64,000 bases of DNA from an uncultured Gammaproteobacteria bacterium (GCA_964533715.1 CAZHNI010000002.1:46496-110495); one strand, 5' to 3'. Shown: positions 193 through 56,044, counted from the stretch's first letter. Numbers and translations: made by a program. The notes: a model not told the origin generated them from the letters alone.

Positions 193-275
193 GTTGGGTA
201 AGTACATTACATTGACTGAAAAAATCAAGTCTGTTAGGATGGGCCTACACCAGCCATCCCGGCTAGGAGGTGCAC

Positions 276-1121
276 ATGTCGGCAAGAAGCTTCGTGCGAA
301 TGCTGAAAGCGCAGTGGGTGCTGCGGAAGTTCGTCTGCGTCGGGCTCGATCCCGATCCGAGCAAGATCCCCGGCTACACCGAGCAGGCGGGGACCATGGC
401 GGTCCGCGGGTTCCTCGAGGAGATCATCCTGAGCACCCACGACCTCGTGGGCGCCTACAAGCCGAACCTGGCGTTCTTCGAGCAGTTCGGCCCCGAGGGT
501 CTCCAGCTTCTGGTCGAGATCTGTCAGCACATCCGGTCGGTGTGCCCGCAGGTTCCCATCATCCTCGACGCCAAGCGCGGTGACATCGGGAACACCAACG
601 AGGGGTATGCCCGCTTCCTGTTCGATCGGTGCTGCGGCGACGCGGTCACCGTCCACCCGTACCTGGGGCAGGAGGCGCTCGCGCCGTTCCTCGCCCGCAA
701 GGACAAGGGCGTCTTTGTCCTCTGCCGGACCTCGAACCCAGGCGCGGGCGAGTTCCAGGATTTTCTCGGTCCGGACGGCACGCCGCTGTACCTGCGCGTC
801 GCCAGGAACGTGGCCACGAGCTGGAACGCGAACAACAACTGCGGCCTGGTCACCGGCGCCACCTATCCCATCGAGATCGCGGCGGTGCGCGAGGTAGCGC
901 CGAACCTGCCGCTCCTCATCCCGGGCGTCGGCAAGCAGGGCGGCGATCTGGAGTCGGCCGTGAAGGCGGCCCTGGCCGCCGACGGCGAGGGCAACTTCCT
1001 GGTCAACGCCTCGCGCGACATTCTGTACGCCTCGAAGGGCGACGACTACGCCCGGGCGGCACGGGCTGCCACGCTGCGGCTCCACGGCGAGATCATCCGG
1101 CACCTCGGGCTCACGGACTGA
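276..1121 (+). CDS. pyrF: Orotidine 5'-phosphate decarboxylase, type 2 (long, actinobacterial-like form)
   Basis: Motifs GLDPDP, KPNLAFFE, ILDAKRGDIGNT, VTVHPYLG, VFVLCRTSNP and LIPGVGKQGG line up with type-2 OMP decarboxylases. AGGAGG sits 5 nt upstream of the ATG at 276 (the listed ORF starts at an in-frame GTG at 270). The gene is markedly GC-rich compared with its flanks. Confidence 0.85.
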   Translation: MSARSFVRMLKAQWVLRKFVCVGLDPDPSKIPGYTEQAGTMAVRGFLEEIILSTHDLVGAYKPNLAFFEQFGPEGLQLLVEICQHIRSVCPQVPIILDAKRGDIGNTNEGYARFLFDRCCGDAVTVHPYLGQEALAPFLARKDKGVFVLCRTSNPGAGEFQDFLGPDGTPLYLRVARNVATSWNANNNCGLVTGATYPIEIAAVREVAPNLPLLIPGVGKQGGDLESAVKAALAADGEGNFLVNASRDILYASKGDDYARAARAATLRLHGEIIRHLGLTD

Positions 1122-4242: not shown

Positions 4243-4450
4243 AGCTCATTTTATTTCTTTATACAACCCAGTGAGTTTGTTAAAAACTAATTCCGGAGTA
4301 CAAGTTACTAAAATCAACCCATCTTGATTTCATTAACTTTTAAAAAACAACCCTATCACTTTTATCACAATGTATTATGGTAAAAGTGACAGATCGGGTG
4401 GTTTTAATTCCCGAGCTATCATCGGGAGTTGATGCGGACGCCTCGGTGAC

Positions 4451-5059
4451 TTACTTGGGTGAGTGGACGGAGTGGTAGAGGGGGTGGCCGTAGACCGGAT
4501 AGCTGCCGGTCCCTTCGGCGGAGCAGGACGCGTAGCCGCCCCACTCGATGTAGAGGGCCGCGCCTGGGGGTGCCTCGTTCCAGTTCGTGCACACCACCTG
4601 GAAAGGAATCAGCTTGTCCTTTTCCAGGTGAAGCGGCGTGCTGCCTGGCATCCAGTAGCCAGAGTTGGGGCCGATTTGCTCGCCGATGGTGTCCCCCCCG
4701 CCGTAGCCAATTTCTCCGGTGGGGACTCCGTTCAGCCAGACCTCGATCCGGGGCACCCAGTTGCTGCGTTCATAGCCGAGCCACAGGGACACACCCTCAA
4801 GGTTGATCGGCTGGCAGTCGGCGCTGTCAGCGGCGTGCATGGCGCCGTTGATCAGCACCGCGACCGACTGAGACGCCGGCACCTCATCCGGCGGAGGGGT
4901 GGCCGGCTCAAAGACCGGGAAGCCCGGCACGATCATGTACTTGGCCGTCAGGGTGTACCCCGGGCGGGTTTCGGACAGCACCGGACCGCACTGTGGCTCC
5001 GGCCGATCGGCACCGCAACTAGCCGCGAGCAGCAGAGACAAAACAACCAGTTGGCGCAT
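4451..5059 (-). CDS. High-GC lipoprotein of unknown function
   Basis: Lipobox LLLAASCGA. RBS GAAAGGAAG 6 nt upstream of the ATG. GC-rich codon usage unlike the flanks. The antisense ORFs 4459-4806 and 4463-5110 are judged spurious. Confidence 0.7.
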   Translation of the reverse strand: MRQLVVLSLLLAASCGADRPEPQCGPVLSETRPGYTLTAKYMIVPGFPVFEPATPPPDEVPASQSVAVLINGAMHAADSADCQPINLEGVSLWLGYERSNWVPRIEVWLNGVPTGEIGYGGGDTIGEQIGPNSGYWMPGSTPLHLEKDKLIPFQVVCTNWNEAPPGAALYIEWGGYASCSAEGTGSYPVYGHPLYHSVHSPK

Positions 5060-5206
5060 CGGACACTTCCTTTCTTGTTTTTTAAGGAGCTACCCACTTC
5101 AGCCCCATAGAGCACGCTCTCCTTTGAGATGCTCAGGTGAGGCTTAAATGTTAGTATGTGATGTGTATCAAAGCATATTATTATAAGATGCGTCAATTGG
5201 CAAACC

Positions 5207-5375
5207 CCTTAAGCTTTGAATTACGAAACACCCATTTTGTCATCCTGAACCCCGCTCAAGCGGGGTGAAGGATCTCTGTCCGGTTGTTAACTTGGCCAAC
5301 GTTGGCCAATTAAGACAGAGATTCTTCGCTCTGCTCAGAATGACAGTTGAGTTTCGTAACTCAAAGCCCTTAAGG
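5207..5375. repeat. ~170-bp imperfect palindromic (MITE-like) element, copy A
   Basis: Outer inverted repeat CCTTAAGCTTTGAATTACGAAAC / GTTTCGTAACTCAAAGCCCTTAAGG. Inner termini TTGTCATCCTGA / TCAGAATGACAGTT. Internal hairpin CCCCGCTCAAGCGGGG. Central perfect palindrome TTGGCCAACGTTGGCCAA. Homologous to the element at 22173-22330. Confidence 0.55.
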
Positions 5376-16619: not shown

Positions 16620-18890
16620 ATGACGAAAATTAGCAAATTATTGTATTTTATTATGACTTGCAATTATATTAAATTTCAACGCTACAGTCTTTATGCAAGC
16701 CTGATATTACCGTTACTTTTTACTTCATTCACCTTTTCTCCCTGGCATTTTGGAAAAACAATTTTTTTTCAAATTTTGGTGGAAGTAATGGTTGCAAGTT
16801 TATTTATATATTGGTTGCGCGTGGCTGGAGAAAAAGAAAAGTTAGTTTTGTGGAGCAAAAATCTAATTAGGCGTATAAATTGGCTCGATTGGTCAGTGAT
16901 TATTTTTTTGTTAGTACTTACTATCACTGCCTTAAGCGGATTTGATGTAAACAATAGTTTTTGGGGTAACCAAGCGCGAACCAACGGCGTATTTACGTGG
17001 TGGCATTTTGTAATATGGTACCTATTTCTTCGTAATATATTCAAAGAGAAAAAAGAATGGCTTTATTTTTTTGGTGTAATTATCGCCGTATCGCTTGTAG
17101 TGTCGTTCACTATTTTTTTCCCAAATTTGCTACCAATGTCGTGGCAGAGCGCTTCTGGCGGTGGCATTATTGGTAATCGGGCATTTGCTGCTAATTATCT
17201 TTTAGTCGCAGTAGGTCTGGCTGTTTATTTAGCAATAATTTTAAAAGGTTTTTGGAAATATGCTGTGATCATGGCTACCATTATACTTTTGGCAGCCCTT
17301 TTTTATCTGGGTACGCGCGGGGCGCAGCTTGGTTTGGTTGTGGGCGTAGTGGTTGGCTGCGGTCTCAGAATAGTGTATATGTCTCGTACAAAATATCGCC
17401 GCGCCGCTTTCGTAGCTGCTTGTTGTGCGGTTGGTATCGTTGGTATTTTAGTCTTTTTTGGACAATCTAATTCTTTTCGTCAAAATTGGCCAAGACTCGG
17501 CAATCTCATCAATTATCATCAGCTTATTTCAGGCACCGGGGAAACCCGTCTTATGGCGTGGCGTATCGCGCTTCAAGGCATTAAAGATAAACCAATTGTC
17601 GGCTGGGGAATGGAAAATTACACTATTGTTTTTAATAAATATTTTAATCCTCAATTTCTCAAACATAGTTTTCAAGAAACGGTTTGGGACAAACCACACA
17701 ATTGGCTTTTGGAAATTGGTATCAGCGCGGGCGTAATAGGTATATTGAGTTATATAAGTATTTTTTGTGCCGCTGGTTATTATATCTTACGTCGACAAGC
17801 TCTGCCGCCTTTTGCGCGAGCAATTTATGCCGGCACGTTGGTTGGTTATTTTGTGGCAAATTTATTTTTGTTTGAAACCAGTAACAGCTTGCTTATGTGG
17901 TTTGCGGTGCTGGCATTTATATCCAGTCAACAATCCATTGGTACCGAGCAATTATCGCAAGCAAGTGGGGCGGCGCAGAGCCAAGCCTCATCATTTAAAA
18001 AAGTATGGTTGGTTGGTGGTATACTATGTATAGTAATATTATTGTGGAAATACAATGTACTTCCTCTTCGTGTGTCATACTACCTTCGCTCTGCCCAAAA
18101 TGCGGTCACGGCGGAATCGTGGGCAGATTATGCGCAAAAAACTCTCAGCCTGCCAAGTTTGTTTCGTGGCGAAAGCGCTATTTTTTTGGCAGAAAGGTTT
18201 ACCCAGCTCGATAAATCAGGGATTTCTATAACCAGTACGTCTACAGTATCGGCCGCGTTGGCAGCAGCGCACGTGTTAGATAAGGAAAGCGAAACACACC
18301 CAACTAATCCGCTCTTTGCAGTCTGGTCGGGGCAAATGTATATGGTTTTAGGAGAGAAACTAAACGAAAAATATTACGCCGATGCCGAGCGCGCCCTCCT
18401 GGTTGCTTACCATTTATCCCCACGCAAACAGGAATTTTTATTTTTCTTGGGTCGGCTCTATCTTCTTAAAAAAGATTTTTCCACTGCCCTGGCCTATCAA
18501 AAGCAAGCCGTTGCCGCCGCGCCAAATATTAGTACAAGCCATTGGTTTTTAGGGCTTACCTATATAGCAAGCGGAGATAAACAAAATGGGCTTCTCGAAA
18601 TTGAACAAGCCTTAAAGTTGGGCTATTATTATAGTTTGACACCCAATCAAAAATTATATATTATAGACCTTTACGCAGAGACTCAACAATACGATAAAGT
18701 TATTGAATGGTATAAAAAATTTATTATCGAAGAACCGGAAAATGTGAATTGGTATATAAAATTGGCTACGGCTTATGCAGTTGCCGGTAAAAAAGATTTA
18801 GCTCTTGAGACAGTGCGTCAGGCAATAGATATGTACCCGCCGCTCGCGCCCCAGGCCGCGGCCTTCATTAAACAATATCATTTACAATAA
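16620..18890 (+). CDS. O-antigen-ligase-domain (Wzy_C-like) polytopic membrane protein with C-terminal TPR repeats
   Basis: Motifs GTRGAQLGLVVGVV, GWGMENYTIVFNKYFNP and WDKPHNWLLEIGISAGVIG. TPR-like C-terminus. Paralogous to 22384-24441. The start may be the internal Met at 16653. Confidence 0.75.
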   Translation: MTKISKLLYFIMTCNYIKFQRYSLYASLILPLLFTSFTFSPWHFGKTIFFQILVEVMVASLFIYWLRVAGEKEKLVLWSKNLIRRINWLDWSVIIFLLVLTITALSGFDVNNSFWGNQARTNGVFTWWHFVIWYLFLRNIFKEKKEWLYFFGVIIAVSLVVSFTIFFPNLLPMSWQSASGGGIIGNRAFAANYLLVAVGLAVYLAIILKGFWKYAVIMATIILLAALFYLGTRGAQLGLVVGVVVGCGLRIVYMSRTKYRRAAFVAACCAVGIVGILVFFGQSNSFRQNWPRLGNLINYHQLISGTGETRLMAWRIALQGIKDKPIVGWGMENYTIVFNKYFNPQFLKHSFQETVWDKPHNWLLEIGISAGVIGILSYISIFCAAGYYILRRQALPPFARAIYAGTLVGYFVANLFLFETSNSLLMWFAVLAFISSQQSIGTEQLSQASGAAQSQASSFKKVWLVGGILCIVILLWKYNVLPLRVSYYLRSAQNAVTAESWADYAQKTLSLPSLFRGESAIFLAERFTQLDKSGISITSTSTVSAALAAAHVLDKESETHPTNPLFAVWSGQMYMVLGEKLNEKYYADAERALLVAYHLSPRKQEFLFFLGRLYLLKKDFSTALAYQKQAVAAAPNISTSHWFLGLTYIASGDKQNGLLEIEQALKLGYYYSLTPNQKLYIIDLYAETQQYDKVIEWYKKFIIEEPENVNWYIKLATAYAVAGKKDLALETVRQAIDMYPPLAPQAAAFIKQYHLQ

Positions 18891-18896
18891 AAATAT

Positions 18897-19580
18897 ATGT
18901 ATAAAAAAATTATTATTGGTGTTGTCGCACTCGTCGTAATTGGTGGGGTGGCAGGACTCTGGTATACGGGGTTTTTGGGAGGGGAGAGGGCCGTGCGCCG
19001 TTCCATAAGTTCTAACCCCGAATGGCTTGCTAACTACGAAAAGGCCAAACAACGCGAGGCCGAAATACAAAAAAACCCAGAAAAAGCCGGCTTGTATTTT
19101 TCGCTCGGCTTGGCTTGGAAGAGTATTGGCGAACTGGGCGGACCAAAAGAATTTTTTAATCGTTCGCTTGCGGTATATGAACAAGGCATTGCTAAATTTG
19201 GCGCACAAAATATTTTGTTTTATCTTAATGCTGGCAAATTGGCCGAACGAGTGGATGACTTAGCCAAAGCGGAAAATTATTATAAAAAAGCTATAGAAAT
19301 TTCTCCCGCCGATGACAGTGGCTACAAATATTTAGCGGAGCTTTATGAGTATCGTTTAAAAAAATCTAAAGCCGAGGTATTGGCTGTTTTCCATATGGGT
19401 GATATTAAAATGGTTAACCCTTCCTCGCTTTTGATGGCCGAAGCATCCTATTTGCATCGGGTTGGTGATGTGCTTGGTGCATTAAAAATTTATCGTGTTT
19501 TGGTTGAGGCGTACCCTAGTAACCAAGGCTACAAACGAGTTGTTCAAGAGTTAGAAACCGAAGCTGCTGCTCAAAAATAG
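18897..19580 (+). CDS. N-terminally anchored TPR-repeat protein
   Basis: TM helix IIIGVVALVVIGGVAGLWY followed by TPR-like helical repeats. Confidence 0.6.
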   Translation: MYKKIIIGVVALVVIGGVAGLWYTGFLGGERAVRRSISSNPEWLANYEKAKQREAEIQKNPEKAGLYFSLGLAWKSIGELGGPKEFFNRSLAVYEQGIAKFGAQNILFYLNAGKLAERVDDLAKAENYYKKAIEISPADDSGYKYLAELYEYRLKKSKAEVLAVFHMGDIKMVNPSSLLMAEASYLHRVGDVLGALKIYRVLVEAYPSNQGYKRVVQELETEAAAQK

Positions 19581-19597
19581 CCTGTAGATTTACATAA

Positions 19598-19622
19598 CCT
19601 CGGTATCAGCCGGGGTTTTTTG
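19598..19622 (+). terminator. Intrinsic terminator (CCTCGG-tatcag-CCGGGG followed by TTTTTTG)
   Basis: 6-bp stem with one G-U pair plus a T-run after the TPR gene. Confidence 0.5.
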
Positions 19623-19663: not shown

Positions 19664-19692
19664 TTGACAAAAGGCTCATTTTATGGTATAAA
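19664..19692 (+). promoter_or_regulatory. Consensus sigma70 promoter: TTGACA - 17 nt - TATAAA
   Basis: Perfect -35 hexamer, 17-nt spacer and a near-consensus -10, about 270 nt upstream of the high-GC gene at 19961. Confidence 0.5.
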
Positions 19693-19785
19693 GGGATGTT
19701 CAAATTGCGTCTTTTTGGGCATAATTTGAATGTTAAAACTGTTCTTTTACAATCTATTTGAAGCAATACAAAATGTAATAACGTT

Positions 19786-19903
19786 CCTTGGCACGAAGAG
19801 AGGATAGAAACTAGAAATTGGAAATTGGAAATTGGGGATTTTTAAATCGTCCCGAGTTTCTTATTTCTAGTTTTTAATTTCCAATTTTTCTCCGTGCCAA
19901 GGG
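19786..19903. repeat. Complex repeat/hairpin region: inverted repeat CCTTGGCACG...CGTGCCAAGG enclosing three tandem GAAATTG units plus interleaved complementary blocks
   Basis: AAACTAGAAAT pairs with ATTTCTAGTTT, and AATTGGAAATT pairs with AATTTCCAATT. The block order is not compatible with a single simple hairpin. Followed by the hairpins GGGAC-taaggtt-GTCCC and TCCGGC-tctaa-GCCGGA, the latter abutting the RBS GGAGGAGG. Confidence 0.5.
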
Positions 19904-19960
19904 ACTAAGGTTGTCCCAAGGCTTGTCCCCATTTCCGGCTCTAAGCCGGAGGAGGTTCCC

Positions 19961-20746
19961 ATGTACCAGCAGATCATCCGCATCGCCGCCCTCGTCTTCG
20001 CGCTTTTCGTCCTCAACTCCGCCCCGGCCTCGGCCAAGAAGCCGGCCCCGGTCGCCGAGATCGAGAGTCCCGACCTCTCCCTCGCGAAGGTCCGTTTCAA
20101 GACCGGCGAAAAGAAGTACGAGGCCGAGGACTACGCCGGCGCCCTCAAGGAGTTCGAGGGCGCGAAGTTCCTGCAGCCCAAGCGCATCGAGCTCGATTAC
20201 AACATCGCGCGCTGCCACGATCGGCTGGGCAACTGGGAGCAGGCGGTGAAGTTCTACACCGCCTACGCCGACACGAAGCCGAAGGACGAGAAGGAGGTGA
20301 GGGAGCGTATCGCGATCCTCAAGGAGAGGCTCGCGGCGAAGCCCCTCACCACCCCCGCCGTTGCCGGCACCCAGCCCGCTCCGCCCGCCCTGGCTCCCGC
20401 CCCCGCGACGCGGACTGACGGTGGCGTCACGCCCGCGGCTCCCGCCACCCCCTACGCCGGCAGCAAGCCGAACCTCAACCTGCCGGCCCCCGCCCCGGCC
20501 CCGCCCGCCGCGACTGTCCCGCTCGTTCCGACGACCCAGCCCGTGGCCCCCACGTCGACCAGCCCGCCCTTCTACAAGAAGTGGTGGTTCTGGACGGCCG
20601 TGGGCGCCGCCGCGCTCGTCGCGGTCGGCGTCGGCATCGGCGTCGGAGCTTCGCGGGAAACCACCTATTCCCAGACCCGCCCGGACCTGGGGACCGTTCA
20701 CTTCAACCTCAACCTCTTTCCCACCCCCGACACGGGGGGGAGGTGA
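19961..20746 (+). CDS. High-GC secreted TPR-like / proline-rich protein with a C-terminal TM helix
   Basis: RBS GGAGGAGG. Signal peptide IAALVFALFVLNSAPASA. Long Pro/Ala-rich linker. TM helix WWFWTAVGAAALVAVGVGIGVG. GC-rich. Confidence 0.65.
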   Translation: MYQQIIRIAALVFALFVLNSAPASAKKPAPVAEIESPDLSLAKVRFKTGEKKYEAEDYAGALKEFEGAKFLQPKRIELDYNIARCHDRLGNWEQAVKFYTAYADTKPKDEKEVRERIAILKERLAAKPLTTPAVAGTQPAPPALAPAPATRTDGGVTPAAPATPYAGSKPNLNLPAPAPAPPAATVPLVPTTQPVAPTSTSPPFYKKWWFWTAVGAAALVAVGVGIGVGASRETTYSQTRPDLGTVHFNLNLFPTPDTGGR

Positions 20747-20749
20747 CCC

Positions 20750-22006
20750 ATGCGCCAGACCCTCTTCGCCTTGATGGTCGCCGCCCTCCTCGCGGGGTGC
20801 GGCGCCGACATGCGCCCGTGCCCCAAGGGCGCGGTCCGTATCCACATGCAGTTCGACCAGGTCGTCCGTGATCGTGGGTACGCCGTCACGGCGACCCTCA
20901 CGATCGATGGGGTGTCGGTCCAGACCCCCTTCGACCCCAGCATCAACGGGGATGCGGAAGGGAATATGGACTTCGTCTTCACCCATGGCTACCCGGCGAT
21001 CGGTGCAGAGGCGCAGATCGACCTGGTCGTGCGTCGCAACAGCGACATCGTCGGCGAGGGGCACGCAACCTTCGAGATCACCGAAGGGTGCACCTACGTC
21101 GTCGTCCCGGTGACCGCTTCGGTGGCACCTGAGGACGGCGGCACTGATCTCGCGCGGCTCGACGGCGGCGCTGACCTGTCTCGGCCGGACCTCGCCAGTG
21201 GCGACGGTTCGGTCGACCAGGCCACCCCGCCTGACCTCACGACGCCCCCCGACCTGACGCGCCCCCCCGGCGACCTCACCGTTCCGCCCCCTGACCTCAC
21301 CGTCGCGGGGGACATGGCGCGGCTCCCGGACGCGGCCCTCCCCGACCTGACCACCGCCCCGCCTGACCTCACGACGCCCCCCGACCTGACGCGCCCCCCG
21401 GACCTCGTGGCCACGCCCGATCTGGTTCTCGCCTGCAATCTCGACGCCGACTGTGGCAGCAAGACCGGTGGTGCCTGCAAGAACGGCACCTGCCAGCCCC
21501 CTGCATGCACCGACGGCCTCAAGAACCAGGACGAGACTGACGTCGACTGCGGCGGCGCCAAGTGCGTGCCGTGCGTGCCCACCAAGGCGTGTATCAAGGA
21601 CGCCGATTGCATCATTCCGTGGTGCAACCCCAGCACCAAGAGGTGCGGCAACATGGTCGGTACGGTCTTCATCGGATCGGAGGGCGAGAAAATTGACCTG
21701 AACAACCCGGCGAACAACCCGCCGCCCGTGTGGAGCTGCCTCGACGCCTGCGCCAAGAAGTTCGGTGCCGGTACCTACCGCTGCTCCACCGTGCTCGGCT
21801 CCGTCAACGGGCTGAGCTGGTCGCAGTGCTACGGCGACGGGCAGCACTGCTCCCCTGGTGGAGAGGTGTCCGAGAGCTACAAACTCGGCACCACCTACTA
21901 CTGCCCAGGGGCGCCGGGCTGCGCCTGCTCGGCGTGGGTCGACTACCAGAACAGCGGTGGTTCGGCCTGCGCCAACGCGGGCGCCAAGTCCTACTGCTTC
22001 AAGTAG
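20750..22006 (+). CDS. High-GC lipoprotein with PPDLT(T/R)P repeats and a Cys-rich C-terminal domain
   Basis: Lipobox LLAGCGA. RBS GGGAGG overlaps the upstream stop. Repeated TPPDLTTPPDLTRPP. About 30 Cys in the C-terminal 190 aa (CxxGxCxxxxC patterns). The antisense ORF 19874-22150 is rejected. Confidence 0.7.
   Translation: MRQTLFALMVAALLAGCGADMRPCPKGAVRIHMQFDQVVRDRGYAVTATLTIDGVSVQTPFDPSINGDAEGNMDFVFTHGYPAIGAEAQIDLVVRRNSDIVGEGHATFEITEGCTYVVVPVTASVAPEDGGTDLARLDGGADLSRPDLASGDGSVDQATPPDLTTPPDLTRPPGDLTVPPPDLTVAGDMARLPDAALPDLTTAPPDLTTPPDLTRPPDLVATPDLVLACNLDADCGSKTGGACKNGTCQPPACTDGLKNQDETDVDCGGAKCVPCVPTKACIKDADCIIPWCNPSTKRCGNMVGTVFIGSEGEKIDLNNPANNPPPVWSCLDACAKKFGAGTYRCSTVLGSVNGLSWSQCYGDGQHCSPGGEVSESYKLGTTYYCPGAPGCACSAWVDYQNSGGSACANAGAKSYCFK
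21226..21398 (+). repeat. Two copies of a ~43-bp direct repeat (CCCCGCCTGACCTCACGACGCCCCCCGACCTGACGCGCCCCCC) encoding the PPDLTTPPDLTRPP motif
   Basis: Identical DNA blocks at 21226-21268 and 21356-21398. Confidence 0.6.
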
Positions 22007-22011
22007 ACCCC

Positions 22012-22057
22012 CGCCAGAGGGCGGAGCCCACTTCGGTGGTGCTCCGCCCTCGGCGGA
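22012..22057 (+). other. GC-rich hairpin (GCCAGAGGGCGGAGC...GCTCCGCCCTCGGCGG) at the 3' end of the high-GC islet
   Basis: Near-perfect 16-bp inverted repeat with no T-run after it. Confidence 0.4.
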
Positions 22058-22140
22058 TCTAACCTCGCGGTTGCCTACGGCGACCGCTTCTCTCTTGTAC
22101 TCAAGATTAGTTAAATCGTGGTTACAAGTATAGAAAAAAT

Positions 22141-22172
22141 AAAATCCCAAGGCACATGTCCGGGATTTTTTT
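22141..22172 (+). terminator. Terminator-like hairpin AAATCCC...GGGATTT followed by TTTTTTT
   Basis: 7-bp stem with an imperfect GGCACATGTCC interior, plus a T-run. Confidence 0.45.
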
Positions 22173-22330
22173 ATTAAGTTTGGTTAATAACTGTCATTCC
22201 GACTGAGGAGCTCGCGCGACGAGTGGAGGAATCCCTTGGTTCGTTAAATGGCGATTTTGGTAAAAGGGATTTCTCGACTAGGCCTCCGGCCTCGCTCGAA
22301 ATGACAGTTTTTCATTGAGCTATTTTTGTT
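22173..22330. repeat. ~150-bp imperfect palindromic (MITE-like) element, copy B, homologous to 5207-5375
   Basis: Termini AACTGTCATTCCGACTGAGG / CTCGCTCGAAATGACAGTT, inner GGAATCCCTT / AAGGGATTTC, internal hairpin CTCGcgcgaCGAG. Shares TGTCATYC, GTGRAGGA-TC and GAAATGACAGTT with copy A. The left flank ATTAAGTTTGG resembles copy A's CTTAAGCTTTG. Confidence 0.55.
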
Positions 22331-22383: not shown

Positions 22384-24441
22384 ATGAAAAATATCATTGA
22401 ACGGATTGTTAAATTCTGTATCTACGCCACATTTTTTGTGCCGCTGGTGGTGGTACCGTCGTCGTTTATTTTTCCGTTTATTGTCCCCAAAATTTTGTTA
22501 TTTCGCGCCCTGGTTACTATAATGCTTGCTGGTTACATTTTGCTTTTAGCTGTAGATTTTGAATCGTATCGGCCAATTCGTTCTATTTTGTCGTTATCTG
22601 TTTTGTTGTTCTTGTTAAGTTTTGGTTTGTCAACTTTTTTAGGCGTGGATGCCTACCATAGTTTTTGGGACAACCACGAACGCATGTTGGGCCTGTTTAC
22701 TATTACTCACTATATTATTTATTTTTTTATTTGTGGCGCCGTGCTGCGAAGCTGGTCGGATTGGAAGTGGGCGTTGCGCCTATTTTTATTGGCTGGTTCC
22801 ATAGTAATGTTTATTGCAGTTTTGCAAAAAGGCAATCCAGAATTACTCTTAAACCAGGGTAGCGACCGCACCGCAAGCACGCTTGGCAATGCAATTTATG
22901 TGGGCGGTTATGGTTTGTTTTTGTTTTTTGTTTCCTTGCTTCTTTTTACCAAGGATAAAATAACAAGTTGGCGGTTTGCCTATGGTTTAGCGGGTATTTT
23001 GGCCATACTTGGTATATTTTTTAGTGGCACGCGCGGATCAGTTATTGGTTTATTGGCAGGCTTGTTTGTAACTATTGTGGGTTATTTAATTATTATAAAA
23101 AATCACGCTCGCGTGCGGTATAGTTTACTTGGCATTTTAGGACTTGTAGTCTTTGGTGTCCTCGTATTGTATGCCAATCGTAATTCAGCGTGGGTGGAAT
23201 CATTGCCGGCCATCGGTCGTTTGTCCGCCACTTCGTTTTCTGATATTAAAAACGGCACTCGTTTTATTGCTTGGCAAATTGCTTGGCAAAGCGCGGCCGA
23301 AAAGCCTTTTTTTGGCTGGGGGCCCAACAACTTTTTTTACGCGTTTAACAAATATTACAATCCACGCTCGCTGGAATTTGGTTATGGCGAAACCTGGTTT
23401 GATAATGCCCACAATATTATTCTTAACACGCTTACCGTACAAGGGTGGTTCGGTCTTATAGTATATCTTTCTGTTTTTGGCGTGGCCGGAGTTGTTTTGT
23501 GGAGAAACAAAAATTTTCGTGAAAGCCAGCCGCACGTAGTGGTTATTGGATCTGCTTTTTTGTTTGCACATTTAGTGCAGAATATTACGGTTTTTGAAAA
23601 CCCCACTTCATATTTGTACTTTATGTTTTGGCTGGCGCTCGTGGCGCAGAGCACAACCGCGGTTGTTAAAAGTGATGAGAATAATATTCAAAAAATAAAA
23701 ACAGCCGCAGCGTCGCAGCCGGTTGGGATCGGCGCGGTTGTGCTCACTGGGCTGGCAGCGTTGGCGGTAATTTTTGTTTTTGAAATTCAACCAGCTCGCG
23801 CTAATATTAAAACACTCGACGCACTTAACGCTTTTGCGACAGACCCGACAACCGGGTTCGCTGTTATGCAGGAAACTCTAAAATTTAACTCTCCCCATAT
23901 TGATGATATTAGAAGCGACCTTGCCCGCATGGTGGTTGACTTGGTTGGGAGATATTATCAAAAATTAGGCAAAGAGCAGTCAGTGCAATTTATTGATTTT
24001 ACTCGAACTTCACTTGAAGAGAATGTTAAACTTCACCCTTTGGATATTCGTAACAACATGACGTTAACGCAGCTTAACCAGCTTAGTTACGCCATTACGA
24101 ATGATCCGCGTTTTATAGTGTCCGCACACGAATACCTTGTAGACGCATTAAGTAAGAGCCCGCGGCGCCAACAACTTATGTATATGTTGGCAAGCATTAA
24201 ATTGCAGCTCGGTCGCAAAGATGAAGCAATACGCCTAATGGAACAATCAATTGAAGAAGACCAGAAAATTTCTGAAGGTTACTGGCGTTTAGCTTTTATC
24301 TACCAGTTTATTGGCGACACAATTCGTGCCAGAGCCACTCTTGGTTTGGCTCATGAGCGGGGAGTAGTATTTGACGCTCAGGGTCAAGATGTTGAAACCC
24401 AGATTATGGCTGGACTTGGAAAGAACGGTACAAAGAAGTAG
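22384..24441 (+). CDS. O-antigen-ligase-domain membrane protein with C-terminal TPR repeats (paralog of 16620-18890)
   Basis: Motifs GTRGSVIGLLAGLFV, FFGWGPNNFFYAFNKYYNP and WFDNAHNIILNTLTVQGWFGL. TPR-like C-terminus. Confidence 0.75.
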   Translation: MKNIIERIVKFCIYATFFVPLVVVPSSFIFPFIVPKILLFRALVTIMLAGYILLLAVDFESYRPIRSILSLSVLLFLLSFGLSTFLGVDAYHSFWDNHERMLGLFTITHYIIYFFICGAVLRSWSDWKWALRLFLLAGSIVMFIAVLQKGNPELLLNQGSDRTASTLGNAIYVGGYGLFLFFVSLLLFTKDKITSWRFAYGLAGILAILGIFFSGTRGSVIGLLAGLFVTIVGYLIIIKNHARVRYSLLGILGLVVFGVLVLYANRNSAWVESLPAIGRLSATSFSDIKNGTRFIAWQIAWQSAAEKPFFGWGPNNFFYAFNKYYNPRSLEFGYGETWFDNAHNIILNTLTVQGWFGLIVYLSVFGVAGVVLWRNKNFRESQPHVVVIGSAFLFAHLVQNITVFENPTSYLYFMFWLALVAQSTTAVVKSDENNIQKIKTAAASQPVGIGAVVLTGLAALAVIFVFEIQPARANIKTLDALNAFATDPTTGFAVMQETLKFNSPHIDDIRSDLARMVVDLVGRYYQKLGKEQSVQFIDFTRTSLEENVKLHPLDIRNNMTLTQLNQLSYAITNDPRFIVSAHEYLVDALSKSPRRQQLMYMLASIKLQLGRKDEAIRLMEQSIEEDQKISEGYWRLAFIYQFIGDTIRARATLGLAHERGVVFDAQGQDVETQIMAGLGKNGTKK

Positions 24442-54898: not shown

Positions 54899-54959
54899 AG
54901 TACTTTTGAGTATATCACAATTTTAAAAAATTAGCTGTAGATGCCCTAATCAGTCTTTA

Positions 54960-54998
54960 AATCAAAACCGTCCAGATGATTTCTGGACGGTTTTGATT
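54960..54998. terminator. Perfect 15-16-bp hairpin (ATCAAAACCGTCCAG-atgattt-CTGGACGGTTTTGAT) between two minus-strand genes, at the edge of the high-GC islet
   Basis: Inverted repeat read directly. Likely the terminator of the high-GC gene ending at 55058. Confidence 0.5.
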
Positions 54999-55057
54999 AG
55001 TGCTCGAGGGGGGTGGAAACCTCAGGGGGATGTCGAGCGGCATCGTGAGGGGGGGCT

Positions 55058-55894
55058 CTAGAAGATCTGGAGGTCGAGGAGGGCGCGGAGCGCCAGGGCG
55101 CGGCACATGTTGCCGCCCTTGGTCTGCATCCGCACCACCCGGTTCAGCGTCTGGAAGGCGCCGGCCGGGTTGTCGAGTCGGAGCTGGGCCTTGGCCGCGA
55201 AGAGGAGCGCGGTCCCGATGGCGTCCCCGTACTCGCCGGTGAGCGCGGTCGCCTCGGCGATCTCGATGGCGCTGGTGAAGTCGCCGGCGTCGTAGAGCCT
55301 GGCCACCTGGGCCATCATCCAGAACGGGCGGAACAGGTCGTGGTAGCGGTTGTCGGCCGCCTCCATCGCCTGCATCGCCGCCAGGTACGACGAGCGGCCC
55401 TGGTACTGGTTGATGTTGGCGAGCATGCTCGCCTCGACGACGTGGGCCGGGATGTTCCCCTCGACCCACTCGAGCGCACGAGGGGACTCGTCGCCCGCGA
55501 GCGCCTGCTGCGCCACTGCGGCGGCGGCGGCGAGCCGGTTGAAGGTGTGGCCCAGCTCGTCGCCCCTGACCACGGCGTTGTTGAACGCCGAGACCGTGGC
55601 GAGGAACGCCTCGATCGCGTAGCTGGTGTCGGTCTCGCGCGTTGCCGGGGGCGAGCGGTACTGCTCGGCGGCCAGCAGGTGCAGGTTGATCAGCGCACCG
55701 TAGCCGCCGCCGTCGCGCGTCATGATGCGGGCGTTGTAGCCGGCGCGGAGCGCGAGCGCCGTGCGCTCGACCCCGTCCGGCAGCTCCGCGATCTCCGCCA
55801 TGACCTCACGCAGGAGGACGGCGGCTTCCCCGAATCCCTCGTTGGTCTGGCGCAGCGCGTACACCCGGTCGATTTTTTTTCCGATTTCTTCCAT
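55058..55894 (-). CDS. High-GC all-helical hypothetical protein (278 aa)
   Basis: RBS AAGGAGGG 8 nt upstream of the ATG at 55894 (MEEIGKKIDRVY). GC-rich throughout. The plus-strand antisense ORFs 55340-55939 and 55000-55242 are judged spurious. Confidence 0.6.
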   Translation of the reverse strand: MEEIGKKIDRVYALRQTNEGFGEAAVLLREVMAEIAELPDGVERTALALRAGYNARIMTRDGGGYGALINLHLLAAEQYRSPPATRETDTSYAIEAFLATVSAFNNAVVRGDELGHTFNRLAAAAAVAQQALAGDESPRALEWVEGNIPAHVVEASMLANINQYQGRSSYLAAMQAMEAADNRYHDLFRPFWMMAQVARLYDAGDFTSAIEIAEATALTGEYGDAIGTALLFAAKAQLRLDNPAGAFQTLNRVVRMQTKGGNMCRALALRALLDLQIF

Positions 55895-56044
55895 GTGCTT
55901 GCCCTCCTTGTGGGCGTTTTGGGTCAAAATTTTGCTTAGCAAAAATTAAAGCACCCCTCATTTTATCATATAATAAGGTTTTTGTCAATTCGCGATCATC
56001 GATTCGTTTAAAATTTTTAACCCGCTAGTTTTTCTTGATAAATT

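Follow-up and report, generated by a model that had tools for sequence, protein, structure and literature searches.

A two-gene high-GC islet, probably of myxobacterial type, at the head of a surface-glycan cluster in a putative CPR genome

Introduction

How does a sharply bounded stretch of GC-rich DNA come to lie in a genome of far lower guanine-plus-cytosine (GC) content, and what kind of organism supplied it? We address this question for a locus on contig CAZHNI010000002.1 (GCA_964533715.1, 46496-110495), a stretch of 64,000 nucleotides (nt) that was analyzed at its full length and is referred to here as the window. The window holds four sharply bounded high-GC islets, at 201-1280, 4361-5140, 19861-22140 and 54941-55960 (~61-67% GC), and our subject is the third and largest of them, which encodes a membrane-anchored protein (gene 1) and a Cys-rich lipoprotein (gene 2). 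The islet appears to sit in the genome of a bacterium of the Candidate Phyla Radiation (CPR). To our knowledge no host or partner has been identified for most CPR bacteria, and genomes offer few hints of physical association, of which fresh, unameliorated transfers are one. We conclude that the islet is ~2.2 kb of foreign DNA, a complete two-gene operon from a high-GC Gram-negative donor that was most probably a member of the Myxococcota (Myxococcales/Polyangia-like), and we place the probability of this reading, for the origin and identity of the operon only, at roughly 0.7.

Results

The islet is foreign to its host

At 67-69% GC, and 67% over 19861-22140, the islet contrasts with the 40-42% of the genome and the 42% of the window as a whole, with steps in 40-nt windows at ~19,895-19,905 on the left and ~22,090-22,100 on the right, and both of the GC-rich genes that a first-pass annotation had read in it, from the sequence alone, are present as open reading frames (ORFs). 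GC content at third codon positions (GC3) is 92% in gene 1 and 88% in gene 2 versus 35-44% in six host genes, while the genes of the other three islets reach 82-94%. The relative synonymous codon usage (RSCU) of the islet is anticorrelated with that of host genes (r = -0.27) and closely follows that of Myxococcales-type loci (r = 0.88). Because GC3 is this high and codon usage runs counter to that of the host, amino-acid composition does not explain the GC content of the islet. The islet DNA is foreign to its host.

The host itself, as judged from its genes, is a Magasanikiibacteriota-like CPR bacterium: among its genes are those for Wzy_C membrane proteins with tetratricopeptide repeats (TPR), a sigma-70/DUF5667 pair, MetK and a long series of glycosyltransferases, and the product of the Wzy-like gene at 22384-24441 shares 61% identity with the corresponding protein of a metagenome-assembled genome (MAG) of Candidatus Magasanikiibacteriota (locus L001). 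The islet lies between the host TPR227 gene (18897-19580) and this Wzy-like O-antigen-ligase/TPR gene, which are 2.8 kb apart. Scanning metagenome contigs with the Wzy-like protein yielded 80 related loci, and in four relatives (L080, L140, L141 and L121) the TPR227 orthologue and the Wzy-like gene are immediate neighbors, 9-105 nt apart; we interpret these junctions as empty sites. An uninterrupted junction in four relatives, together with a GC3 of ~90% and a codon usage unlike that of the host, bears out the non-host composition first suspected at this locus. Paralogous Wzy_C (O-antigen-ligase-like) and TPR membrane proteins, at 16620-18890 and 22384-24441, flank the insertion region, and the two genes head a cluster of >10 kb with PMT_2, GT4, GT2, methyltransferase and epimerase genes; the insertion junction lies at the head of this surface-glycan gene cluster.

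A coupled pair of an anchored TPR protein and a Cys-rich lipoprotein

The coding features of the islet are as follows.

19948-19955, plus strand: Shine-Dalgarno sequence of gene 1, GGAGGAGG, read from the sequence
19961-20746, plus strand: gene 1, 261 amino acids (aa)
20734-20743, plus strand: Shine-Dalgarno-like G-rich run of gene 2, GGGGGGGAGG, inside the 3' end of gene 1
20750-22006, plus strand: gene 2, 418-aa lipoprotein
20828-21118, plus strand: beta-sandwich domain of gene 2 (residues 27-123), with a predicted local distance difference test score (pLDDT) of 65-84 in AlphaFold2 (AF2)
21134-21430, plus strand: PDL-repeat, Pro-rich stalk of gene 2 (residues 129-227), disordered, delimited from homologues
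21225-21267, plus strand: 43-bp exact direct repeat, copy 1, encoding PPDLTTPPDLTRPP
21357-21399, plus strand: 43-bp exact direct repeat, copy 2
21431-21646, plus strand: ~1.5 six-Cys modules of the CxDGxKNxDETDVDCGG type in gene 2 (residues 228-299), delimited from homologues
21647-22003, plus strand: Cys-rich C-terminal domain of gene 2 (residues 300-418), ending YCFK, supported by 48 relatives and an AF2 model
19874-22150, minus strand: 758-aa antisense ORF, a shadow and not a gene (GC content at the three codon positions 86%, 53% and 62%)

The two genes are in one frame, and only 3 nt (CCC) separate the TGA of gene 1 from the ATG of gene 2; with GGAGGAGG before the first gene and GGGGGGGAGG before the second, the translational coupling and ribosome-binding sites (RBSs) attributed to the pair hold up. 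The 758-aa ORF is the sole stop-free antisense frame opposite the GC3-rich sense genes. Since its first- and third-position GC values mirror the composition of the sense genes, it is a shadow, as had been supposed, and calls for caution in annotation: the longest ORF of the region is not a gene.

Gene 1 encodes a signal peptide (~1-25), a TPR region (~45-122), a Pro/Ala/Thr-rich linker (~125-200), a hydrophobic membrane anchor (~202-229) with a conserved PPFYKKWWFWTAVG... motif, and a short tail. This is the layout given in the first-pass annotation, and the TPR region reaches 29.2 bits against the Pfam TPR_19 model (cut-off 25), with the remaining TPR models under their cut-offs. The possibility that gene 1 is a diverged copy of the adjacent host TPR227 gene was considered and rejected (E = 1).

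Gene 2 has, in MRQTLFALMVAALLAGC, an N-terminal signal peptide ending in a lipobox, LLAGC, that fits the pattern [LVI][ASTVI][GAS]C and carries its Cys at residue 17. The peptide PPDLTTPPDLTRPP occurs twice (residues 160-173 and 204-217), encoded by the two exact 43-bp copies, so that the description of gene 2 as a repeat-bearing lipoprotein is sound. Two further elements of that description needed correction. Instead of ~30 Cys in the C-terminal part we count 25 in the whole protein, 22 of them from residue 229 onward; and the supposed EGF/Kazal-like character finds no counterpart in curated families, as EGF, Kazal, MopE and the Myxococcus Cys-rich repeat gave no Pfam match at E <= 0.1 and no relevant NCBIfam match at E <= 1, and gene 2 matched no other Pfam or NCBIfam family either. 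For the N-terminal beta-sandwich, a fold search returned generic beta-sandwiches, the best being CBM20 (E = 1.2e-3). Homology of this domain to the lipoprotein of islet 2 (E = 0.28) and to a lipoprotein partnered with a gene 1 relative at locus L180 (no homology) was rejected.

Relatives of both genes point to a high-GC donor of myxobacterial type

With the C-terminal domain alone as the query, a full HMMER scan of 1.84 billion representatives detected 48 relatives, the best at 67 bits and 47% identity, and in nearly all of them (exceptions P0090 and P0096) the domain forms the C-terminal end or lies close to it; its consensus is LVGSFxVxxGPxWxxNPPxYxCxEACAxxFGG...YxCST...NYC[WFY][KR]. Four relatives (P0072, P0077, P0078 and P0083) combine lipobox, PDL repeats, Cys modules and C-terminal domain as gene 2 does. 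One of these, P0077, comes from a Myxococcales MAG and is the sole taxon-named relative found with a gene 2-like architecture; it is without the beta-sandwich, as is P0078. P0076, P0077 and P0078 lie in uniformly 70-73% GC DNA, and GC3 is 90-93% for P0076 and P0077, as in the islet. We infer that the acquisition was evolutionarily recent, because the GC3 of the islet (88-92%) still equals that of these donor-type genomes.

The structure prediction that had been proposed for the Cys-rich domain, run with the relatives as the alignment, gave a confident AF2 model (pLDDT 84.4; predicted template modeling score 0.78). In its relatives the domain is partnered with Big_9, cadherin-like, PKD and MopE domains and with IPTL-CTERM sorting signals, which are hallmarks of cell-surface proteins, and we regard it as a candidate new cell-surface protein domain, an uncurated family. 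The stalk and Cys module are more widespread, being common to many proteins that include named ones from Nannocystis and Labilithrix and to many Myxococcales/Polyangia loci; 35 of the 78 genome loci with the Cys module carry a Myxococcota-type label.

The module (as CxDGxKNGxETDVDCGG) is also native at low GC in ~32 DPANN and other archaeal loci (Woesearchaeota, Nanoarchaeota, 'Methanosarcinales') and in 3 Paceibacterota loci. Among the Cys-module loci (L004-L078) a DPANN/archaea label is about as common as a Myxococcota-type label, and the native CPR and DPANN copies have host-like GC contents of 32-48%. It may be a surface module common to ultra-small episymbionts and myxobacteria.

Gene 1 leads to the same kind of genome. 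We detected 34 relatives of 190-350 aa, the one named among them belonging to the Polyangiaceae, and the five that were read whole (P0036, P0040, P0042, P0044 and P0057) have a common overall plan, with a YKKWW[FL]WTAVG anchor in four. At all four loci where the surroundings of a gene 1 relative were read for this (L159, L178, L180 and L181; 63-69% GC), a gene for a lipobox protein follows in coupled position, starting -4 to +13 nt from it. Given this 4/4 arrangement, 'anchored TPR protein plus coupled lipoprotein' is a recurring unit of high-GC genomes that appears to have moved whole. Other neighbors of gene 1 relatives encode an FHA/sigma-54 activator, a Ser/Thr kinase, PilZ, PEGA and MopE proteins, LptD and a lipid A acyltransferase, and are of myxobacterial or Gram-negative flavor.

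Three marks of a transferred islet are therefore in place: deviant composition, an empty site in relatives, and relatives of its genes, at modest identities, in native high-GC genomes. The Myxococcales relative of gene 2, the Polyangiaceae relative of gene 1 and the 35 Myxococcota-type Cys-module loci agree with the myxobacteria-like donor that the first-pass annotation had favored, whereas the Actinobacteria that it had also entertained are at odds with relatives adjoining LptD and lipid A acyltransferase genes.

Flanking signals and a proposed working of the operon

Outside the two genes we recognize the following elements.

19596-19621, plus strand: intrinsic terminator of the upstream host gene TPR227, an AT-rich, host-like stem-loop and T-run
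19664-19692, plus strand: host-type, sigma-70-like promoter candidate (TTGACA-17 nt-TATAAA), located ~270 nt before gene 1, read from the sequence
19783-19905, plus strand: long imperfect leader hairpin with 56-nt arms (inverted repeat I1), whose 3' end is the left GC step
22016-22051 and 22067-22087, plus strand: two GC-rich hairpins just past the gene 2 stop (RNA fold z = -8.5), the second terminator-like
22141-22172, plus strand: AT-rich host-type intrinsic terminator AAAATCCC...GGGATTTTTTT, read from sequence and fold
22186-22312, no strand: palindromic element CTGTCATTCCGA ... TCGAAATGACAG (inverted repeat I2) between the islet and the Wzy-like gene

The promoter candidate was passed over by our promoter scanner solely since the second hexamer must there have T at position 6; comparable elements (TTGACA-17-TAxxxT) precede the foreign genes at two related loci with inserts of their own, L090 and L130, and these inserts and the other islets of the window have comparable promoter and terminator arrangements. 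The ~270-nt leader contains a very stable 123-nt hairpin (fold of 19700-19975, -95 kcal/mol, z = -6.6) that may be a stabilizer or regulator of the mRNA or else a relic of insertion; no Rfam family matched at the hairpin or in the islet. On the downstream side, the hairpins at 22016-22087 are the last of the foreign high-GC DNA.

Stable hairpins directly upstream of an RBS at the left foreign-gene boundary occur both in the window (19783-19905) and at L130 (~2712-2770), and smaller hairpins precede islet 1 and the L090 insert. A common role of the boundary hairpins of the window and L130, such as mRNA stabilization, is possible. Palindromic elements with GTCATYCYGA ... TCRGAATGACAG ends are found at 5235-5350 (islet 2), at 22186-22312 (islet 3) and in L001 (~2100-2270); they are only loosely alike, and an enrichment of such elements was not demonstrable.

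We propose that the operon was inserted into the intergenic junction between TPR227 and the Wzy-like gene and that it would be transcribed from the host-type promoter at 19664-19692 and end at the host-type terminator at 22141-22172. The gene 1 product would be exported and held by its C-terminal anchor, with the TPR domain outside the membrane on the Pro-rich linker, while the gene 2 product would be lipidated at Cys17 and display its disulfide-rich C-terminal head on the long PDL/Pro stalk. CPR cells are assumed to be without an outer membrane. Both products would then be held on the external side of the cytoplasmic membrane, where the TPR protein could serve as partner or scaffold of the lipoprotein, the pair forming a surface-binding, adhesin-like module. 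A role in binding or adhesion would fit both the architecture of the proteins and the position of the operon at the start of a surface-glycan cluster.

As the route of entry we presume, by default, that DNA was taken up from a neighboring or host cell and then joined in by illegitimate recombination, because no integrase, transposase, flanking direct repeats or viral relatives were found. In ORF, domain and profile searches, neither the islet nor its surroundings showed a gene for an integrase or transposase or a phage gene; no direct repeats or common motifs were found at its boundaries, and flanks are not shared between islets or loci. Scans of viral contigs yielded no gene 2 relative and, for gene 1, matches to the anchor motif only, PADLOC gave no match and PHROGs just two marginal matches to gene 1, of unknown function, and a tRNA search at the islet gave no integration tRNA.

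Alternative explanations

Several observations weigh against a myxobacterial operon with a surface-binding role. The best identities to relatives are just 43% for gene 1 and 47-53% for the C-terminal domain, and no close donor sequence was found. The name Myxococcota itself rests on few named sequences and on gene context, most relatives having no taxon name; the likeness in codon usage would fit any high-GC donor; and, being native in DPANN and Paceibacterota genomes, the Cys module does not identify a donor. A word-index search that took the two end domains of gene 2 as one joined query detected no sequence relatives of the N-terminal beta-sandwich, and the C-terminal domain has no match in Pfam, among PDB sequences (profile search) or in Foldseek searches of PDB and BFVD. 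That the CPR host expresses the genes, that lipidation occurs and that disulfides form are predictions, and an adhesin function of the pair, which we read from architecture only, is put forward tentatively, as a possibility rather than an expectation.

These same points leave room for a donor outside the Myxococcota, whether another high-GC Gram-negative group or Actinobacteria: most relatives are metagenome proteins without a taxon name, codon usage cannot separate high-GC phyla, and the remaining three islets are without a taxon assignment. We nevertheless regard such a donor as unlikely, because the named relatives belong to myxobacterial taxa (Myxococcales, Polyangiaceae, Nannocystis, Labilithrix) and the neighborhoods of the relatives, from the FHA/sigma-54 activator to LptD and lipid A acyltransferase, are of a myxobacterial or Gram-negative kind that speaks against Actinobacteria in particular.

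The picture is complicated by what lies at the same site in related genomes. In a tblastn search of 185,579 species-representative genomes the best match of gene 2 was not a myxobacterium but L001, the Magasanikiibacteriota MAG, whose gene lies directly upstream of the orthologous Wzy-like gene, has a GC3 of 82% versus 55% for its host, and encodes PDL repeats, ~11 Cys modules and a C-terminal domain that belongs to the gene 2 family. The first-pass annotation had taken best homologues within the host lineage as the finding that would speak against foreign DNA; such a homologue exists, but in a formal sense only, the L001 gene too being a high-GC insert, and one at this very site.

One ancient gain in the common ancestor of the window lineage and L001, followed by vertical inheritance, with a local force such as selection or biased repair maintaining the high GC, would account for the common site, for C-terminal domains of one family that both end in YCFK, and for downstream elements alike in kind (a terminator of the same type and a palindromic element). 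We consider this, too, unlikely. The Wzy-like proteins are 61% identical, a distance at which synonymous sites are saturated, yet GC3 has stayed at 82-88%; the two C-terminal domains are not mutual closest relatives, as that of the window scores 67 bits against P0071 and is itself missing from the top matches of the L001 domain, whose own best match is P0096; the Cys modules number 1.5 versus ~11; the flanks of the two loci align unconvincingly; and relatives with an about equally similar Wzy-like protein have empty sites. With domains that are not nearest relatives, flanks that align unconvincingly and GC3 that is unameliorated in hosts this distant, independent acquisition of related genes by the window and L001 is, on sequence comparison, more likely than a single ancient event.

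Two further loci have other cargo at this site. L090 (6661-9760) carries a secreted 370-aa protein and a coupled 560-aa lipoprotein (GC3 64-77% versus 31-35% in the host), and L130 (2821-3600) a 227-aa protein upstream of the Wzy-like gene, matched by L092 (1-660). Both cargos are unrelated to the window genes. The L090 lipoprotein contains MopE-type CDGxDNDCDGxxDE motifs (PF11617, E = 7e-20), and a high-GC insert in L099 (1-1320) likewise encodes a Cys-rich protein with MopE-type motifs. The related and unrelated cargos together hint at recurrent capture and at a favored landing site before the Wzy-like gene. However, only 2 of 7 independent islets in 1.03 Mb of related loci fall there (P ~0.10), and with statistics this weak we treat the site preference as a lead and not as a claim.

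Such recurrence raises the prospect that the islet is cargo of a dedicated mobile element targeting this site, be it an integron-like cassette, a unit flanked by miniature inverted-repeat transposable elements, or a phage or plasmid remnant. Three different cargos at one site in four lineages (the window, L001, L090 and L130), a long hairpin exactly at the left GC boundary, and palindromic elements adjoining islet 2, islet 3 and the L001 insert are what such an element might leave behind. The searches described above argue the other way—no integrase, transposase or phage gene, no flanking direct repeats, no flank sequences common to islets or loci, and no viral relatives—and with the site preference statistically insecure we judge a dedicated element quite unlikely.

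Could the islet instead be an artifact, a high-GC stretch from another organism joined in by the assembler or by contaminated binning? Sharp GC steps, the metagenomic derivation of the contig and the lack of an independent copy of the exact locus in exact-protein look-ups for genes 1 and 2 would all be expected of a chimera. Four islets would, however, require eight joins, all of them intergenic and all enclosing intact ORFs with their own RBS; each of the four separate islets contains whole ORFs and is bounded inside intergenic DNA. Host sequence with host-type promoter and terminator signals lies on both sides, and the same phenomenon recurs at the same site in the independent assemblies L001, L090 and L130, with the L001 gene in the same family. 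In L130 and L092, moreover, junction and insert are 99.9% identical and were assembled from two separate groundwater samples, which is useful evidence that GC junctions of this type are real. On these structural and comparative grounds a chimeric source appears very unlikely.

Least credible of all, to the point of dismissal, is the notion of native CPR genes made GC-rich merely by encoding Pro/Ala/Gly/Cys-rich proteins, for the proteins are indeed rich in G, A, D, P and C, the top genome-level match is another CPR MAG and the Cys module is native in CPR and DPANN genomes, but GC3, on which the protein sequence places little constraint, is 88-92% where host genes have 35-44%, RSCU is anticorrelated with that of host genes, native CPR/DPANN copies of the module have a GC of only 32-48%, and four relatives have empty sites.

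The remaining islets of the window

Islet 1 (201-1280; gene at 270-1121, plus strand) has 64.5% GC and a GC3 of 91% and encodes a type-2 orotidine-5'-phosphate decarboxylase (TIGR02127, 245 bits), a metabolic gene apparently acquired by transfer; it has a promoter candidate of its own, TTGACT-17-TAGGAT, and a terminator of host type. Just upstream, at ~85-172, lies a tRNA-like 3' fragment with a GGTTCGAATCC T-loop motif, ending ...GCACGCCA, which was recognized by neither ARAGORN nor Rfam and may be a degraded or unusual tRNA beside the islet. Islet 2 (4361-5140; gene at 4451-5059, minus strand) has a GC3 of 82% and encodes a 202-aa lipoprotein with the lipobox LAASC and no family match. Islet 4 (54941-55960; gene at 55058-55942, minus strand) has a GC3 of 94%, and its 294-aa product gives a weak TPR match. 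Islets 2 and 4 are both accompanied by promoter and terminator signals of host type.

Discussion

The locus presents a small, recent horizontal acquisition in a genome of a kind into which gene transfer is already known. What is unusual is the density and freshness of the islets, the lean toward myxobacteria-type Cys-rich surface lipoproteins, and an uncharacterised C-terminal domain that is nonetheless well modelled. We found no report in the literature that links CPR bacteria with Myxococcota or describes such islets.

A broader scenario would have this CPR lineage repeatedly capturing Myxococcota surface operons and setting them under its own promoters, beside its surface-glycan genes, at a landing pad upstream of the Wzy-like gene, myxobacteria being physical hosts or partners and the lipoproteins, with the uncharacterised Cys-rich C-terminal domain, attaching to or mimicking their cells; we hold this to be speculative and, taken as a whole, somewhat unlikely. 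The islet does encode the kind of surface protein expected to mediate cell-cell contact, and if the pattern extends genome-wide, Myxococcota as partners of this lineage become a testable hypothesis. Gene 2 in turn offers a candidate adhesin, one domain of which is modelled with confidence and finds no Foldseek match among solved structures. If the pattern fails, what is left is a clear-cut case of gene transfer on a small scale into a streamlined genome.

How does the pair compare with known systems? Gene 1 resembles BatC and GltE, short extracytoplasmic TPR proteins of Gram-negative envelopes, without belonging to either family: by the curated NCBIfam cut-offs it falls far short of both BatC (NF047507, 26.2 bits versus 175) and GltE (NF033758, 16.7 bits versus 225). 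It is closer to the Myxococcota pairs built on TPR, Pro-rich linker and 'YKKWWFWTAVG' anchor (P0033, P0040, P0042, P0044 and their neighbors), which are themselves uncharacterised and without a curated family. Domain order, anchor and coupling are the same, whereas gene 1 identity is just 27-43% and the partner lipoproteins differ, being an NHL/beta-propeller protein, an 875-aa protein with 78 Cys and a 70-aa peptide.

For gene 2, the familiar short disulfide-rich modules of secreted myxobacterial proteins (Cu-binding_MopE (PF11617), the Myxococcus cysteine-rich repeat, EGF and Kazal) offer no match; its module, CxDGxKNxDETDVDCGG..., is uncurated. The nearest counterparts are the Myxococcales-type lipoproteins P0072, P0077, P0078 and P0083 ('NPPxYxC...NYC[WFY][KR]'), with the same order of modules and C-terminal domains 42-49% identical to that of gene 2. 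From these gene 2 differs in an extra orphan beta-sandwich after the lipobox and in having just ~1.5 Cys modules, and they carry a 'CxxxxNCDGNxxNGCE' module that gene 2 is without.

As for the transfer itself, a survey of CPR transfers in aquifer MAGs, which uses nzgw MAG naming as does L001, reports mostly CPR-to-CPR exchange, and the term Myxococc* is absent from its text (PMC12455944). The acquired islets of Patescibacteria/CPR described there are likewise foreign genes of atypical composition in streamlined genomes, frequently with envelope or surface cargo (PMC12455944). Compared with those transfers, the islets of the window are tiny (1-2 genes), essentially unameliorated (GC3 ~90%) and dense (four per 64 kb), and the islet studied here is of myxobacterial type.

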